A DNA stretch of 50,168 nt from Escherichia phage vB_EcoS-DELF2, in sequence record NC_049832.1. One strand, given 5' to 3'. Every line of letters starts with the position of its first letter. Position 1 is the first letter of the stretch. Below, in pieces: positions 9,177 to 36,218 of this stretch. The position numbers were made by a program, and so were the translations under genes. Under the pieces are notes generated by a model. It was not told the DNA's origin, made no database searches, and saw only the letters and a list, made by a program, of their open reading frames with translations.

Positions 9177-9382
9177 GCTTCTTCTCCTTCATCTTCGATC
9201 GGGGTAAAAAACTGAGTGTTCACTGCCGGGTTATAATAAACCCCATCGTCATAGTCGCTTTCTTTCACTTCAATGAAAACGTCGCAACCGTCATGCATGA
9301 AGTCACCATTATCAGTATGAACCAGTTCGAATACTTCAGAAGTTTTAGTGCAAGTGAAAAACTTATCAGTTGATACCATCAT
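9173..9382 (-). CDS. hypothetical protein
   Basis: Preceded by palindrome motif 9440..9458 plus TGaTATAGT extended -10 and GAGAGA RBS. Confidence 0.45.
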   Translation of the reverse strand: MMVSTDKFFTCTKTSEVFELVHTDNGDFMHDGCDVFIEVKESDYDDGVYYNPAVNTQFFTPIEDEGEEA

Positions 9383-9439
9383 TTCGATTTTCTCTCTTCG
9401 TTGTCGATGAGGTAACTATATCAAATCACCCCACCGACG

Positions 9440-9458
9440 TTTTAGCAATTCGTGCTAT
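9440..9458 (-). promoter_or_regulatory. palindrome motif copy (plus-strand text TTTTAGCAATTCGTGCTAT) with extended -10 TGaTATAGT 19 nt downstream
   Basis: Read directly; upstream gene stop codon TAG embedded in motif. Confidence 0.55.
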
Positions 9459-15682: not shown

Positions 15683-15701
15683 TTTTAACAAAAAGTGCTA
15701 T
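15683..15701 (-). promoter_or_regulatory. palindrome motif copy with TGgTATAGT -10
   Basis: Read directly. Confidence 0.55.
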
Positions 15702-16536: not shown

Positions 16537-17230
16537 TTGTCTATACCTCGTTGTCTATGGGTGTAACTTTCAACTTCGAAAAACATGTTACAGCTACAAA
16601 GTCAGGAGCGTCAATGTCTATAGCTGCATTTTTTATTTTTGTAACCAGTGCAACCGATGCAACCGACTTTTTCTATAAAAGTAAGCACATCTATTTATGC
16701 GCGCGGAATGGTATGTTTTTTATACTATGCATCACGAAATATATGCCACCCTCAAAAAATGCGGTTGCACCTATTACGCCGATTACATACCAATATATAA
16801 TATAATAAATAAATAAATATATATTATCTATCTTATTATTATATATAGATATTTTATTATCTATAGGCCTATCGATTCTCGGGCCACTTTGTAACACCCC
16901 TGATGGTATACAACTATTACGACAATTACAACTACCGCATAGACGAATAGCACGTTTTGCTAAAAATGGAGATTACCACCAGGCGAACTGGGTAACACTA
17001 AATCCTCCCTCTCACAATCATTGCAATCTAAGCAACAAATCAACCGACTGTTGCACACCATGCAATAATCACGTTTCATCATTCGCAATCAATCACAATC
17101 AAAATTATTCCAACTATTCCAGCATTGATGTAATAATGAGCAATTATTGGAATAGCATTTTTTGCTAACGACTGGACCAGGTTGGCAGGGTATAGTTCTG
17201 GCCATCAACCAATCAGAAGAGGAAGCAGCA
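16537..17230. repeat. AT-rich divergent intergenic region with iteron-like repeats and two motif copies lacking or displaced from -10
   Basis: TTGTCTAT x2, TGTAAC/GTTACA, ATATTATCTATC, inverted TATCTAT/ATAGATA; motif copies at about 16947 and 17152. Confidence 0.5.
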
Positions 17231-17416
17231 ATGAAATTAATTTGGTCACTATTCGACGGTTCAGGACTTGCTGGTCATGAACTGGCAAGGCAAGGTCACA
17301 AGGTGATGTGCTTCAACTTTGACGGAGCAGATCACGGAGATTACGCAAAGTACAACGCCAGGGTTGAGCATCCTAACATTGAGTATGTGAACGTCTTTAT
17401 TGATGAGAAGTTCTAA
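17231..17416 (+). CDS. C5-cytosine DNA methyltransferase-like, N-terminal fragment (motif I FDGSG) ending at in-frame TAA
   Basis: ATG at 17231 preceded by CAACCAATCAGAAGAGGAAG leader; TAA at 17414..17416 in same frame as downstream ORF. Confidence 0.35.
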   Translation: MKLIWSLFDGSGLAGHELARQGHKVMCFNFDGADHGDYAKYNARVEHPNIEYVNVFIDEKF

Positions 17417-17434
17417 CTTGATGCTATCGCGGGT

Positions 17435-17935
17435 GTGTATGGCAAGCCTGATTTCATTATGGCATTTCCTCCATGCACTGACCTGGCTGTTAGTGGCGCT
17501 GCTCACTTAGCAAGAAAGCGTGAGCGAGATCCGTTATTCCAGGAGAAGGCTGTTGCCACCGCCAGGATTGCCGCGAATATTGGCGACGCCCTGGGAGTGA
17601 CTTACATCATTGAGAATCCTGTGAGCGTCCTGTCATCTGCCTGGCGAAAACCGAATCACTCATTCAACCCCTGGGAGTATGGCGGCTATCTTCCTGAGAA
17701 TGACGCACACACCTGGTTCCCTATGTATATTGCGCCGCGCGATGCTTATCAGAAGAAAACTTGTCTTTGGACCTCGGACGACTTTGTCATGCCGGAGAGA
17801 AAACCTGTAAACCTGCCTGACGGGTACTCTGCGCAACACAGCAAGCTTGGCGGCAAGTCGGCAAAGACGAAGCTGATACGATCCCTGTCGCCGCGTGGAT
17901 TTTTCAAAGCGATCGCAAATAGCACTTTTTGTTAA
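17435..17935 (+). CDS. C5-cytosine DNA methyltransferase-like, C-terminal part (FPPC motif IV, ENP motif VI)
   Basis: Same frame as 17231..17416; catalytic Cys motif PPCTD; no target-recognition domain obvious. Confidence 0.45.
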   Translation: MYGKPDFIMAFPPCTDLAVSGAAHLARKRERDPLFQEKAVATARIAANIGDALGVTYIIENPVSVLSSAWRKPNHSFNPWEYGGYLPENDAHTWFPMYIAPRDAYQKKTCLWTSDDFVMPERKPVNLPDGYSAQHSKLGGKSAKTKLIRSLSPRGFFKAIANSTFC

Positions 17936-17937
17936 AA
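17919..17937 (+). promoter_or_regulatory. palindrome motif copy (ATAGCACTTTTTGTTAAAA) with TGgCATAAT -10 19 nt downstream
   Basis: Motif encodes the last residues NSTFC-stop of the methyltransferase ORF. Confidence 0.55.
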
Positions 17938-27864: not shown

Positions 27865-29879
27865 TCCGGGATATCCTCCATACCAAAGTCTTTTCGTGAG
27901 ATAATATCTTCTTTCTTCTGGTTGCGACGATGAGTTACGCGCACCGGGTGAGCAATATGATGTGAGTATTGCAAAATCTTGATGGCGTTCTTCATTCCGA
28001 TAAAGTAGCGGCGCATTTTAGGATCTGATACGTGTGGCAATACACCTTTCGTTTTCCATAGCGTACCGCAAATCTTAGAGTCAGACTCGGGGAAGAATTT
28101 TTCATACGCCTTGAACTCATCACCATCGTCGTTAATCAGCGTGTATTTGTATATTATGCCTTTCTGGTTTTTGGTTAGCGTAACCTCAAAATTCTTTACT
28201 TCATACCAGTCATTCTTAGTGTACGCCTTACAGGATAGCTTCAGGTTAGGATCGACAAGCGAAACATCACAACAACGACAGACTCGGGCCACAACGTCAT
28301 TCTCTGCGCCGCACCCTTTAACAAGGATTTTTCCGGTTCGCTCGTCAACCTGGTCCTCACAAATCCGAGAAGTCCAGAAATGATCGCAACGTTCACCATC
28401 AATGACATTAACGCATCGTCGAGCATAGAAGCTATTTACGCAACCGCATTTCGGGCATGTTTTCGGATCTTTGCCGTTTTCAAAACGCTTCTGGAATTGC
28501 GCCTGCTCAAGTATCGGATCGAAATAAAGCTGACCCAGCTCATCCATCGTACCTGCGAAATCCCATACCAGATGGTCCTGCTTAACCATACCCTCAGCAA
28601 CCTGCCATGATTTAAGCAGTCGCATACCCCTGCCCAAAAGTTGAATCAACAGAGTGAGCGATCCTATCTTGCGGAGTATGACACTGAAATCCCAATTTGG
28701 AACGTTAACGCCAGTAGTGAGCGCCATTACCTGAAAGGTGTATTTAATTTTTCCGGCCCTTACGTCGTCCAGAATCTTCTTGCGCGCTTTGTTGTCTGTG
28801 TCGCCAGTAATAATTGCATAGGTGCTTCCCGGAGGAAGTGCTGCCGCTGCCTCTTTGCAGTGGCGCACACCAGCGCATGTAATCAGAACCGCGTTACGCT
28901 CTTCGGCCTTTTTGGCGACCATTTGCATAATTCGCTGAGTCAGGGATTCATCATGAAGGATCTCATCCTCCATCGCTTTCATGTCTTTCTCTGTAAAGTC
29001 CTGCACCCCGTCCTCGCTCGACGCCTTAAACTTATCCAGATCGTAGTGAACTCCGTCCGTTGATCCGAATATAGTCGGAACGACAGATCCGAACTCAATC
29101 AGATAGTTTGTGTCGATATCAGTTACTCGCTCACGCCAGAATCCCAATGCTTTCGGATTCTCTACCAGAATAGGAACTACGCCACGAAATTCAGATCCAG
29201 TCATGCCAAATATTCTGAGATCGTGACCGTGAACCTTTTTACAGCGCCGCATCATTTCCATGATTACGATCGTGTATTGACTGCGCTTAGTTCCAAGCAA
29301 AGGTTTTCCATCATTACCAATCAGTGGAATATCTCCGTCCATGATGATTTTCCCTTTCTCGCCCCTCATCTGTTCCATCGTTTCCTTGCCTTCGATGGCT
29401 TGCGCAAGGTCTTCCCAATCTACCTGATGACATTCATCAATACCGATTACGTGCGGGACGAAATCAGCAAGCTCATTGTCGAGGCCATTTGCAACCGTAC
29501 CCTCAGAACCAACCACGATCGGGAAGTAGCAGGACTTAATTCCAAGCGATGCTGAGAAGATGGAGTTCGTTACCCCGAAGTTGTCGATCTCTTCGCTATC
29601 CTGATCGACAATCTCACCCTGGCGAGCCAGGACAAGCATTTTTAAGCCCATTTTCTGACACTGCTTTGCAACCATAGCAAAAATGATGGTCTTGCCAGCA
29701 GACACTGACGCTTTAACGAAGAATGGGTGCTCATAATTTGACAAGCGCTTCGCGATCTCGGCGTAAGCAACAACCTGATACGGATAAGGAACTACTTCAC
29801 CTACAGTGAATCGCTCCTGAGTTCGCTTTATGTAGTCCTCGCCAAGTAATGCAATCTGTTTTTTAATGTTCATTGTCAC
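27861..29879 (-). CDS. SF2 DNA helicase (DEAH box) with C-terminal Cys-rich zinc ribbon
   Basis: Walker A SVSAGKT, DEAH-like GIDECHQV, CPKCGC...C..C cluster. Confidence 0.8.
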   Translation of the reverse strand: MTMNIKKQIALLGEDYIKRTQERFTVGEVVPYPYQVVAYAEIAKRLSNYEHPFFVKASVSAGKTIIFAMVAKQCQKMGLKMLVLARQGEIVDQDSEEIDNFGVTNSIFSASLGIKSCYFPIVVGSEGTVANGLDNELADFVPHVIGIDECHQVDWEDLAQAIEGKETMEQMRGEKGKIIMDGDIPLIGNDGKPLLGTKRSQYTIVIMEMMRRCKKVHGHDLRIFGMTGSEFRGVVPILVENPKALGFWRERVTDIDTNYLIEFGSVVPTIFGSTDGVHYDLDKFKASSEDGVQDFTEKDMKAMEDEILHDESLTQRIMQMVAKKAEERNAVLITCAGVRHCKEAAAALPPGSTYAIITGDTDNKARKKILDDVRAGKIKYTFQVMALTTGVNVPNWDFSVILRKIGSLTLLIQLLGRGMRLLKSWQVAEGMVKQDHLVWDFAGTMDELGQLYFDPILEQAQFQKRFENGKDPKTCPKCGCVNSFYARRCVNVIDGERCDHFWTSRICEDQVDERTGKILVKGCGAENDVVARVCRCCDVSLVDPNLKLSCKAYTKNDWYEVKNFEVTLTKNQKGIIYKYTLINDDGDEFKAYEKFFPESDSKICGTLWKTKGVLPHVSDPKMRRYFIGMKNAIKILQYSHHIAHPVRVTHRRNQKKEDIISRKDFGMEDIPE

Positions 29880-29940
29880 GGCTATTAATCCTTTTAATCG
29901 TTGTAACGTTTACGCTATAATACACGGCATAAAGTAAACT

Positions 29941-29960
29941 TTTTTAGCAAAAAGTGCTAT
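29941..29960 (-). promoter_or_regulatory. palindrome motif copy upstream of helicase; overlaps RBS region of divergent plus gene
   Basis: TATTAT -10 about 18 nt downstream on minus strand. Confidence 0.45.
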
Positions 29961-30486: not shown

Positions 30487-31422
30487 GTGAACGAAGAATT
30501 TATGATGTTTCAGAAAGAGGACGTTTTGCCGTACATGAAGGGGTTATGGCGCGAGGCTTTCCAATCAATCTGCGGATTGCCGAATGATGTTTTTAATAAG
30601 AAGCACCAACCTTGCCCTAACTGCGGAGGTAAAGACCGCTTTCGCTGGACTGATAACCTGAACACTCCGGGCGACGGAGGTGCGATCTGCAACTCATGCG
30701 GTAACGACTCCGGGATCGGGTGGCTAATGAAATTAACTGGTATGCCGTATAGCGAATGCATAAATATCCTGGGAAGATTTCTCGGAAAAGTTCCGCAGGA
30801 ATACATCGTCAAGGCAAACAAGAAAGCGCGCCGAACTCCGGTATCTGGTGTCAATGTCATGATGGCAGATCATGAATCGGTGATGAAAGTCATGGAGCGT
30901 ACAGAGAAGCGCGTAAACACACCTCTAAGCATGTTTGAATCTCTACCTACTGAATCATTCGACGTTGGCGTAAAACGTCGCGAGGATGGCGGCGAGAGCG
31001 TATTTCACACCATACCATGTCAACTTGTACACGAGGACGGTCTTGATGATGAGTTTTGTAATATTTTGATTATTGATGATGAGGGTAGGGAGTCATTTTA
31101 CGCTAAGAAATACACAAGTTGCTCGGTTGCCGTGACTGGTAAAACAGAAAAAGCGATCTACTTATGCCTTAATTGGATTGATGCTCAGCATATTGCATTT
31201 CACACAAAGCAAGAGGTATGGGCCTGCTTCACTCCTGAGAATCTGGAAATGGTTGCATACAGATATAAAGGGGATCGAGAAGTAAGGGTTGCGTGCGAAC
31301 CTTCAGACAAGGAGACTTTATACATGGCAGACGACCGACAATTAAAAATAATCATCCCAAATCCTGGAGGATACCGCTCAGGAATGCAAGCCAAGTTATT
31401 CTCAGCAAGTGACCTACTCTAA
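30487..31422 (+). CDS. putative DNA primase (zinc-binding)
   Basis: CPNCGG...CNSCGN zinc-finger pair near N-terminus; GGAG RBS before GTG 30487. Confidence 0.45.
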   Translation: MNEEFMMFQKEDVLPYMKGLWREAFQSICGLPNDVFNKKHQPCPNCGGKDRFRWTDNLNTPGDGGAICNSCGNDSGIGWLMKLTGMPYSECINILGRFLGKVPQEYIVKANKKARRTPVSGVNVMMADHESVMKVMERTEKRVNTPLSMFESLPTESFDVGVKRREDGGESVFHTIPCQLVHEDGLDDEFCNILIIDDEGRESFYAKKYTSCSVAVTGKTEKAIYLCLNWIDAQHIAFHTKQEVWACFTPENLEMVAYRYKGDREVRVACEPSDKETLYMADDRQLKIIIPNPGGYRSGMQAKLFSASDLL

Positions 31423-35692: not shown

Positions 35693-36218
35693 TTCGTTTA
35701 TCTCCCTCGTTTACGATGAATCCATTATAGCCATTAACAGCGTTTAGTCAATCGAATACATGTAATTGGTGTGTAATTGCGTGTCTATATCACTCAAGTT
35801 ACAACCAGCGCCAACGGAATCAATTACTTAATCCTGTTTTTATGTGGTGTCTATTGCGTAATACTTGTAACCGCTTTTTCTTAGAAATACAAAGATATCC
35901 ATGAATAGAATCAAGATTGATTATATTTTGAACAAATATGATAGAAATTTGACGAATCAATCAAATCACCAGTTACACGATAGACAACTGTTACACAACA
36001 ATAATTATATATATAAAGCTAAAATTAAATATTATCTATCTATATATATTATATAGAGTTTTTATCACATCACCATGCGGTCGGATGGGGTGGATTTTGT
36101 AACACCTGTTCCGGTTACAAAAATAGACACCTGTTACACGAAAAAATTGTAATCGCGCTATTGCAATAAAAGTAAATGCGACATACAATGCAATCACACT
36201 AACGACGAGGACATACAA
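35693..36218. repeat. AT-rich divergent intergenic region with iteron-like repeats
   Basis: ATAGACA(A/C)CTGTTACAC x2, GTGTCTAT x2 in opposite orientation, TGTAACACCTGTT, ATATTATCTATCT. Confidence 0.5.
36160..36189 (+). promoter_or_regulatory. canonical sigma70-type promoter (TTGCAA-17-TACAAT) for lipoprotein gene
   Basis: Read directly; approximate coordinates. Confidence 0.5.

Follow-up and report, generated by a model that had tools for sequence, protein, structure and literature searches.

The virulent pac-type Bacillus siphovirus SPP1 has two origins of replication, oriL and oriR, which are similarly built, with initiator boxes beside an AT-rich region, and which lie many kilobases (kb) apart. 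In T4 (oriF and oriG) and at the primary origin of T7, a promoter is followed by an AT-rich unwinding element. The annotation of P4 (NC_001609) places an 8-mer iteron, TGTTCACC, in both orientations in ori and in crr, 4.5 kb apart. At the origins of phage-inducible chromosomal islands (PICI) and Staphylococcus aureus pathogenicity islands (SaPI), iteron sets flank an AT-rich segment that is proposed to melt, and the system has a primase and a helicase-type protein (PMC6092414). For T1-like phages, no replication origin has been identified (PMC11447400; PMC7718038), and the 2024 re-annotation of phage TLS found origin-like repeats nowhere in its genome (PMC11447400). Here we analyze Escherichia phage vB_EcoS-DELF2 (NC_049832.1; the whole stretch of 50,168 nucleotides (nt) is called the window), which is the complete or near-complete genome of a T1-like phage (Drexlerviridae, Tunavirus), and describe two large non-coding gaps, region A and region B, as candidate replication origins. 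Its relative T1 belongs to the original set of T phages and is notorious for contaminating laboratories.

We found that regions A and B align with each other on the same strand over ~390 nt, with a local alignment score of 99 relative to 34 ± 5 for shuffled sequences (maximum 58; z ~12), and the opposite-strand alignment scores only 53. The elements follow a common order: TGTCTAT and GTTACA boxes at the left end, then an AT core with ATATTATCTATC; after the core, a variable GC-richer spacer and then TTTGTAACACC; and at the right end an ATA(G/T)ACA-N-(C)T(G/A)TTAC composite, followed by a rightward promoter region with ATTGCAAT. The spacing from ATATTATCTATC to TTTGTAACACC (TTGTAAC) is exactly 68 nt in A and in B; among relatives, this spacer varies in sequence and its length is constant within 1 nt. 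The two large gaps are diverged copies of one ~400-base module, and a sequence-only reading of this stretch, which had listed shared short words, missed the ~390-nt homology. Coordinates of all features are collected in Table 1.

Duplex stability was calculated as the nearest-neighbour free energy (dG) of 60-mers. The 60-mer starting at 16792, in the core of A, is the least stable of the window (dG -50.8, z 6.5, 95% AT), the one starting at 36000, in the core of B, is the second least stable (z 5.7), and the genome's next segment has a z of 3.6. T1, TLS and Rtp likewise have their two least stable 60-mers in the AT cores of their A and B regions. Composite boxes (35972-35996 and 36114-36139) flank the B core, as expected of the AT core of an iteron origin, and both cores lie 100-250 nt away from recognisable promoters.

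Table 1. Positions of the two regions, their elements and the candidate protein genes in the window (position 1 is its first letter)
Feature	Position	Strand	Remarks
Region A	16537-17230		between leftward 191-amino-acid (aa) gene and rightward C5-methylase gene
Region B	35693-36218		between leftward exonuclease VIII gene and rightward cor-like lipoprotein gene
Module of region A	16583..16973	+	aligns colinearly with B; local alignment
Module of region B	35794..36177	+	paralogue of A module; 92-97% identity in at least 59 Tunavirus records
AT core of A, candidate DNA-unwinding element	16790..16866		ATATTATCTATC at 16821; stability scan
AT core of B	35998..36056		ATATTATCTATC at 36029; stability scan
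TGTCTAT boxes (16537, 16551, 16615) and GTTACA boxes (16561 on -, 16587 on +)	16537..16621	+	kept in AV106, phiL and L070
Leftward promoter-like site of A: TTGACG, 18 nt, TAACAT	16585..16614	-	-10 hexamer inside TGTAACA box
Tandem repeat GTGCAACCGATGCAACCGAC	16648..16667	+	imperfect inverted repeat with 16755-16787
TTTGTAACACC box of A	16888..16898	+	same 11-mer in B at 36096-36106
Degenerate composite box of A, GTATACAACTATTACGAC	16906..16923	+	L068/L073 version of A has GTAGACAACTGTTAACAC here
21-nt repeat copy 1, GAATAGCACGTTTTGCTAAAA	16945..16965	+	0 mismatches; atypical 27 nt to weak TAACAC hexamer
T1 genome terminus (pac end), by homology	17056..17072 (between 17066 and 17067)		base 1 of T1 RefSeq NC_005833
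AATCA array of A, GCAATCAATCACAATCAAAA	17085..17104	+	similar array GAATCAATCAAATCACC in B, 35954-35970
AU-rich hairpin, then run of six T, terminator-like	17111..17165	+	overlaps 21-nt repeat copy 2
21-nt repeat copy 2 with TATAGT hexamer (17191-17196)	17150..17197	+	repeat at 17150-17170, 3 mismatches
Exonuclease VIII promoter-like site: TTGACT, 16 nt, TATAAT	35724..35751	-	invariant in relatives
Two GTGTCTAT boxes (35781, 35847)	35781..35872	+	upstream of exonuclease promoter
Left composite box of B, GTTACACGATAGACAACTGTTACAC	35972..35996	+	adjoins AT core; near-invariant in Tunavirus, 1-2 point variants within boxes
Dyad TTTTGTAAC-N10-GTTACAAAA	36095..36122		between B core and right composite box; footprint
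Right composite box of B, GTTACAAAAATAGACACCTGTTACAC	36114..36139	+	direct repeat of left box, 142 nt apart; repeat search, footprint
cor-like lipoprotein gene promoter-like site: TTGCAA, 17 nt, TACAAT	36161..36189	+	footprint
DUF3987 helicase, 522 aa	20867..22435	+	MCM-like AAA+ fold, C-terminal winged-helix-like domain
Cro-like helix-turn-helix protein, 150 aa	29973..30425	+	T1 ST23 homologue; candidate trans factor; directly upstream of primase gene
Primase, T7 gp4 / P4 alpha type	30487..31422	+	Zn_Ribbon_Prim, E 5.6e-16

The repeats that the sequence-only reading had proposed to be common to both divergent regions are real, and window counts and shuffles confirm that all of its motifs exist, but it had misplaced them by up to 12 nt. 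We found TTGTCTAT at 16537 and 16551 (not at 16539 and 16553), GTGTCTAT at 35781 and 35847 (not at 35793 and 35846), and the opposite-orientation copies ATAGACAA and ATAGACAC at 35980 and 36123, respectively (not at 35976 and 36122), where the duplicated 17-mer ATAGACA(A/C)CTGTTACAC also sits instead of at the two positions given for it. The tract ATATTATCTATC occurs in both regions as claimed and has only these two copies in the window, at 16821 and 36029 rather than 16822 and 36034. Region A has a third TGTCTAT at 16615. The gene map and GC content agree that both regions are AT-rich and lie between divergent gene blocks (GC 0.36 in A and 0.33 in B, compared with 0.455 for the window).

Although regions A and B combined are 2.4% of the window, they hold 7/7 copies of TGTCTAT (both strands), 5/6 of TGTTACA, 4/5 of GTTACAC and 11/24 of GTTACA, and an unbiased k-mer enrichment ranks the box words at the top together with pure A/T words. 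As a null model, 1000 dinucleotide-preserving shuffles of A and B themselves were made, and these contain on average 0.24 TGTCTAT, 0.34 TGTTACA, 0.95 GTTACA and 0.14 GTTACAC; none of the 1000 reaches the observed counts. Hence, AT-richness does not explain the boxes. Like the repeats of an iteron-type origin, they are short, clustered, direct or inverted, and in non-coding DNA.

Within region B, the core is bracketed by two direct copies of a 25-26-nt composite box, and each of the GTGTCTAT boxes is followed 9-10 nt on by GTTACAA or TTGTAAC (35798 and 35865). The arms of the dyad are largely kept among 14 Tunavirus copies while its 10-nt spacer varies, and L018 has the form TTTTGTAAC-N11-GTGACAAAA. 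This is the one clear dyad in B; a palindrome occurs in Rtp, and most other boxes are single or direct repeats. In region A, the boxes of 16537..16621 overlap the 5' leader, the ribosome-binding site and the promoter of the first leftward gene.

Conservation of the boxes in relatives, which the sequence-only reading had made its test, was found both for B and for this version of A. Among the 14 Tunavirus copies of region B, boxes, AT core and promoters are invariant or nearly so, and substitutions fall mostly in the spacers, which by phylogenetic footprinting vary in sequence and not in length. The core of B is invariant in all 14 and largely retained in L018. Only four other phages carry the window's version of region A, and these give the same footprint of boxes relative to spacers. 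Three Tunavirus versions of A exist, and they share a layout of TTGAC(A/G) promoter, own tandem repeats, AT core and boxes; the T1 type has GTTAATCGT three times in place of the GTGCAACCGATGCAACCGAC tandem repeat, and one version holds GTAGACAACTGTTAACAC, which is almost identical to the 17-mer of B.

The pair of regions recurs with significant colinear similarity in T1, in TLS (subfamily Tempevirinae) and in Rtp (Braunvirinae), i.e. in three subfamilies. Scores between A and B within one genome are 99 for the window, 123 for T1, 145 for TLS and 175 for Rtp, and no comparison between subfamilies, counterpart regions included, exceeds 119, so that the A-B similarity of TLS and of Rtp is higher than any similarity between subfamilies. 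The enriched boxes are in part specific to a lineage, with GTGTAACA and TAGACA in Tunavirus, CGTGAACA, ATGGAACA and AAAAGAACAAA in TLS, and TTCCGCGGAA and GTTACA in Rtp. Because similarity within genomes exceeds similarity between subfamilies and boxes are partly lineage-specific, the pattern in TLS and Rtp points to concerted evolution of two cis-elements that would be read by the same machinery. We also surveyed 45 Drexlerviridae loci (43-99% identity in the exonuclease), and in 45/45 the 60-mer of lowest stability in the locus is upstream of exonuclease VIII; its distance is 330-390 nt in 44 loci and 162 nt in the remaining one.

Two side observations concern boxes of individual relatives. 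Rtp carries the perfect 10-bp palindrome TTCCGCGGAA three times (169-176, 379-386 and 28043-28050), always in its A/B regions, and these are the only CCGCGG (SacII) sites of its genome. In region B of T1, both core-flanking ATAGACA boxes (30084; 29940-29946) read ATATACA or ATATACG, i.e. the same G-to-T change has occurred at both sites relative to 35980 and 36123 of the window, and ATATACA is enriched in the A and B regions of T1 (6/7 genome copies).

The promoters next to the modules are conserved as well. In each of the three versions of region A, TTGAC(A/G) is retained, with TAACAY or CACAAT 16-18 nt further on. The exonuclease VIII promoter is the sole near-consensus (11/12) sigma-70 match in the 50-kb window and is annotated as a promoter in Chapo and SA32RD. 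Relative to the promoters of exonuclease VIII and cor, boxes are found at ~-60 to -135. Some boxes fall on promoter elements, e.g. on the -10 of the leftward promoter of A, which the sequence-only reading had missed. We also considered every box as a sigma-70 -35 or -10 hexamer, which fits the leftward promoter of A and not the others, and promoter-like sites in A and B are not in excess over shuffles. A TATAAT hexamer at the edge of the AT core faces exonuclease VIII in 32/45 loci; it is without a -35 partner and could be a by-product of the AT-rich composition.

We tentatively interpret regions A and B as a pair of replication origins, each with iterons and an unwinding element between divergent promoters, which we hold to be quite possible although short of probable. 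We favour paired origins because boxes are shared as in P4 ori and crr, because the core lies between outward-firing promoters, and because no origin is known for T1-like phages. The pair could be two independent origins, by analogy with SPP1 oriL and oriR, or an origin and a partner required in cis, by analogy with P4. From the features above, we infer protein binding, melting, origin firing and the nature of the binder as follows. A sequence-specific phage protein would bind the GTTACA(C) and ATA(G/T)ACA boxes, divergent, outward transcription would add negative supercoiling to the core, and the AT core would then open; the phage primase and the MCM-like DUF3987 helicase would be loaded, and host Pol III would elongate. 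The sequence-only reading had suggested replication origins or regulatory hubs. That these are functional, related cis-elements is strengthened because of the colinear paralogy, the least stable AT cores, the family-wide layout and the signs of concerted evolution; these computed features would suit an origin and an operator alike.

Genes for a primase, an MCM-like helicase and a single-stranded DNA-binding protein are present in the phage. The primase is homologous to the primase domain of P4 alpha (tblastn with alpha residues 27-253, E 7e-11). For the DUF3987 helicase, the AlphaFold2 model (pLDDT 89) has MCM2-7 and archaeal MCM as its best Foldseek matches in the PDB (E 1.8e-5 to ~6e-3); comparison with PDB sequences gave no match, and its C-terminal domain alone as query gave a single match, too few to align. 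As listed, the open reading frame (ORF) of this helicase begins 21 codons early (homologues have 522 aa), and its C-terminal winged-helix-like domain is also a standalone PHROG family (phrog_7327). The Cro-like protein has a sub-threshold Pfam match to P22_Cro and belongs with phrog_2856 ('transcriptional regulator'), and its AlphaFold2 model (pLDDT 82) matches Xfaso 1 Cro and N15 Cro with TM scores of 0.70-0.73 over ~63 residues (E 0.02-0.1).

Several results weigh against a pair of origins. Neither module adjoins the primase or helicase genes, as an origin next to its initiator gene would (the distances are 3.6 kb between A and the DUF3987 helicase gene, 4.3 kb between B and the primase gene, and 5.3 kb between B and the Cro-like gene), and a PICI origin, by comparison, is single and directly downstream of the rep gene. 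No candidate binder stands out: the iteron-binding C-terminus of P4 alpha (beyond ~260) has no tblastn match in the window, T1 or TLS; in the helicase, the winged-helix domain has an acidic third helix, hence DNA recognition by this domain is doubtful; and for the Cro-like protein, recognition helix and box type show no clean correlation among 80 loci. Of host initiator sites, we found no DnaA-box cluster, and the IHF consensus occurs once in B and not in A. The left half of A is a mosaic, with each of its three Tunavirus versions tied to a different first gene, and the TTTGTAACAC box is missing from the T1 version. Several boxes fall on promoter or leader elements, which suits operators as much as iterons. 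T1-like phages also carry RecE/Erf recombination genes, and recombination intermediates could be the starting points for much of their replication.

The main rival is purely transcriptional control, with the boxes as operators of a phage regulator, for example the Cro-like 150-aa protein; we consider this a serious alternative, although a doubtful one. The regulator would switch the divergent early promoters of both modules, and the AT core would be a curved or easily opened promoter context. Both modules do lie between divergently transcribed blocks, and boxes are placed as operators would be: over the -10, the -35 and the leader of the leftward promoter of A, upstream of and near the promoters of exonuclease VIII and cor, and within the promoter spacer of the Cro-like gene itself, where the window has TTGTAACGTTTAC. 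The phage has a Cro-fold protein with a box at its own gene, and the dyad with variable spacer in B and the perfect palindrome of Rtp would also suit such a regulator. However, the box at the Cro-like gene promoter is present in T1 and the window and absent in TLS and Rtp, and box type persists across clades with different recognition helices (GTTACA boxes with SNQTVQG and with TPQAVEE helices, AGAACA boxes with both K- and Q-type helices). Moreover, the AT cores are far from promoters, and yet no other part is as conserved or as unstable; their distance from exonuclease VIII is nearly fixed in 44/45 loci, and, given how compact the phage genome is, a non-coding stretch of 500-700 nt is long for an operator region.

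Beside the Cro-like gene, we observed a third divergent gap (29901-29960), in which the + strand TATAAT for this gene (29916-29921) overlaps, back to back, the - strand TATTAT of a repeat-type promoter for a 672-aa DEAD/ResIII-type helicase. These two promoters should be mutually exclusive.

It is also conceivable, but we think improbable, that the boxes are sites of a host DNA-binding protein (a nucleoid protein or an OmpR/ArcA-like response regulator) or -35-like clusters that soak up RNA polymerase. GTTACA is common to Tunavirinae and Rtp-like phages despite divergent phage regulators, TAGACA, GTGACA and GTTACA are 1-2 changes from TTGACA, and GTTACA/TGTTA presumably resembles the half-sites of OmpR and ArcA. 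Yet the boxes differ among lineages with the same host (TLS has GTGAACA/GGAACA, and Rtp adds TTCCGCGGAA), which argues against a host factor, since its sites should stay constant. Bases beside the hexamers are conserved too, as in CTGTTACAC and TTTTGTAAC, and the sites of DnaA and IHF amount to no cluster and one consensus match, respectively.

Packaging or recombination has a slimmer chance still: A would be the pac site bound by the small terminase subunit, and B a secondary pac-like or recombination site. Region A does hold a pac end, by homology with T1, whose record starts there and annotates a repeat_region of 1-2800, i.e. a 2.8-kb terminal repeat starting at base 1; the T1 ends are colinear with the window around 17066/67, and the Chapo record and two IMG/VR records begin at the same base. 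In TLS, pac was located by restriction analysis in the equivalent gap (PMC11447400). The terminus has AATCA/TGATT arrays on its flanks in T1-type phages and also in TLS, where the TGATT arrays are complementary, and B has a similar array. However, the terminus and the AATCA array lie outside the ~390-nt stretch common to A and B, so that a pac end is seen in region A only and not in B or in the shared module; the arrays of A and B are not colinear, the TGTCTAT/GTTACA boxes are 100-500 nt from the terminus, and no record or paper has packaging start at B.

Finally, that the shared words are a functionless by-product of AT-rich composition has next to no probability: it is true that A and B are both rich in AT, that pure A/T words make up many of the shared k-mers and that shared k-mers overall exceed shuffles only moderately, but this reading is refuted by the box counts in shuffles, the colinear alignment, the conservation of boxes relative to variable spacers and the same layout in three subfamilies.

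Around the pac end, 16996-17170 (+) is a strongly conserved non-coding stretch after 21-nt repeat copy 1; it has no ORF, is C/A-rich with CAATCA motifs, has the T1 terminus in its middle and ends in the AU-rich hairpin and T-run. As to its role, a leader, a small RNA and the pac recognition region are all conceivable. The hairpin has a folding energy of -11.7 kcal/mol in the window and -12.8 to -17.6 kcal/mol in relatives, with differing predicted folds. A small RNA in the right part of A is speculative: the spacing of 21-nt repeat copy 1 to its hexamer is atypical, and RNAalifold gave no convincing consensus structure there except the terminal hairpin. Rfam and tRNA scans of the whole window found no known RNAs.

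Region A also contains two copies of the 21-nt intergenic direct repeat aaATAGCACnnnTTGnTAAAA, which has been described for TLS and T1 with its function left open (PMC11447400); like the T1-type terminus, these had escaped the sequence-only reading. Both copies match the repeat, are intergenic and run along the transcription direction, and copy 2 with its TATAGT is likely the promoter of the C5-methylase gene. The repeat is separate from the shared boxes: it has 27 copies in the window at ≤3 mismatches, is spread genome-wide rather than confined to A and B, and what aligns with it in B is no more than a degenerate relic. Nearly all transcription units other than exonuclease VIII, the earliest gene block included, use a 21-nt repeat with a -10 hexamer; 16/17 well-formed forward copies are exactly 19 nt from a TATAGT-like hexamer, often preceded by TG, and a conserved leader CATCGAnAACGA..GAGGA follows the repeat promoters.

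We found that the repeat ATAGCACnnnTTGnTAAAA fits the E. coli MarA/SoxS/Rob marbox, defined for MarA as gcannwwntgnnaaa (PMC12052159), with 21 perfect sites relative to 0.86 expected (for example 9440-9458(-), 15683-15701(-), 16947-16965(+), 17919-17937(+) and 29942-29960(-)). The 19-nt spacing places the repeat centre at ~-40, hence in the geometry of a class II marbox (centre between -36 and -55; class II as defined in PMC12052159). Searching the window by tblastn with MarA, SoxS and the N-terminus of Rob gave no homologue (best E 0.59); since the phage encodes no MarA-family protein, marbox activation would require a host protein. Judged from these sites, host Rob, MarA or SoxS may drive most phage transcription. 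No report of the marbox identity was found in the searchable literature; it suggests an answer to the question about repeat function that the TLS authors left open and would connect phage gene expression with a host stress regulon. A fuller model, in which coupled ori/crr-like origins have boxes co-evolving with a phage initiator and are melted with the aid of divergent transcription that starts, as does most transcription of the phage, at class II marbox-type promoters borrowing host MarA/SoxS/Rob, is unlikely in all of its parts together.

Regarding the surroundings, both regions are matched in Escherichia and Shigella Tunavirus records, and the leftward 191-aa gene beside A has the length and position of T1 ST77 and begins a long block that comprises small early genes and the terminase and head genes. 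On the other side, the Dcm-like C5-cytosine methyltransferase gene (17231-17935, +) has an in-frame TAA at codon 62 (stop at 17414-17416), where phage AV106 has GAG, and is thus broken into ORFs of 61 aa and 166 aa; the ADB-2 record flags a 'potential frameshift' for the same gene. It could be a pseudogene, a sequencing error or a case of read-through. Small ORFs within A and B are unconvincing as genes. GC skew tracks transcription direction and is uninformative on origin position, a search for region B in plasmids gave no match, and single proteins used as queries, those of the first leftward gene and of the Cro-like gene, returned close relatives only.

Two defined ~400-nt segments, conserved across Drexlerviridae, are the best candidates so far for the unmapped T1 origins. 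If they are origins, their paired, concerted architecture would give a handle on how a P4-alpha-type primase and an MCM-like DUF3987 helicase are recruited; if they are regulatory instead, the modules define the early control regions of the family.

Compared with the known systems, the modules resemble the origins of T4 and T7 in that an AT-rich element is tied to promoters, and differ in that the recognisable promoters here point away from the core. They resemble SPP1 in the pairing, but bear no relation to it in the initiator, G38P, or in the boxes, and oriL of SPP1 is inside the initiator gene. As in PICI/SaPI, boxes lie on both sides of an AT core, B has direct 25-26-nt composites, and a primase and a helicase are encoded; the difference is that the phage has two copies, several kb from the primase and helicase genes and between divergent promoters, and that any binding of Rep to iterons is hypothetical here. 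P4 differs from the window in several respects: the boxes are TGTTACAC and GTGTAACA here, not TGTTCACC, the helicase is of the DUF3987/MCM-like type and not D5-type, homology to alpha is seen in the primase domain only and no match to its C-terminal iteron-binding domain was found, and P4 crr is without an AT core of the kind seen in A and B. TLS and P4 both have P4-alpha-type primases, and in TLS the box CGTGAACA, which is tandem in region A and single in B (412-438; 28996-29011), equals GGTGAACA, the reverse complement of the P4 type I iteron (P4 iterons at 9310-9413), at 7/8 positions. The window itself shares with P4 ori/crr a primase domain homologous to that of alpha and a bipartite arrangement, its boxes being nearly confined to two regions 19 kb apart.

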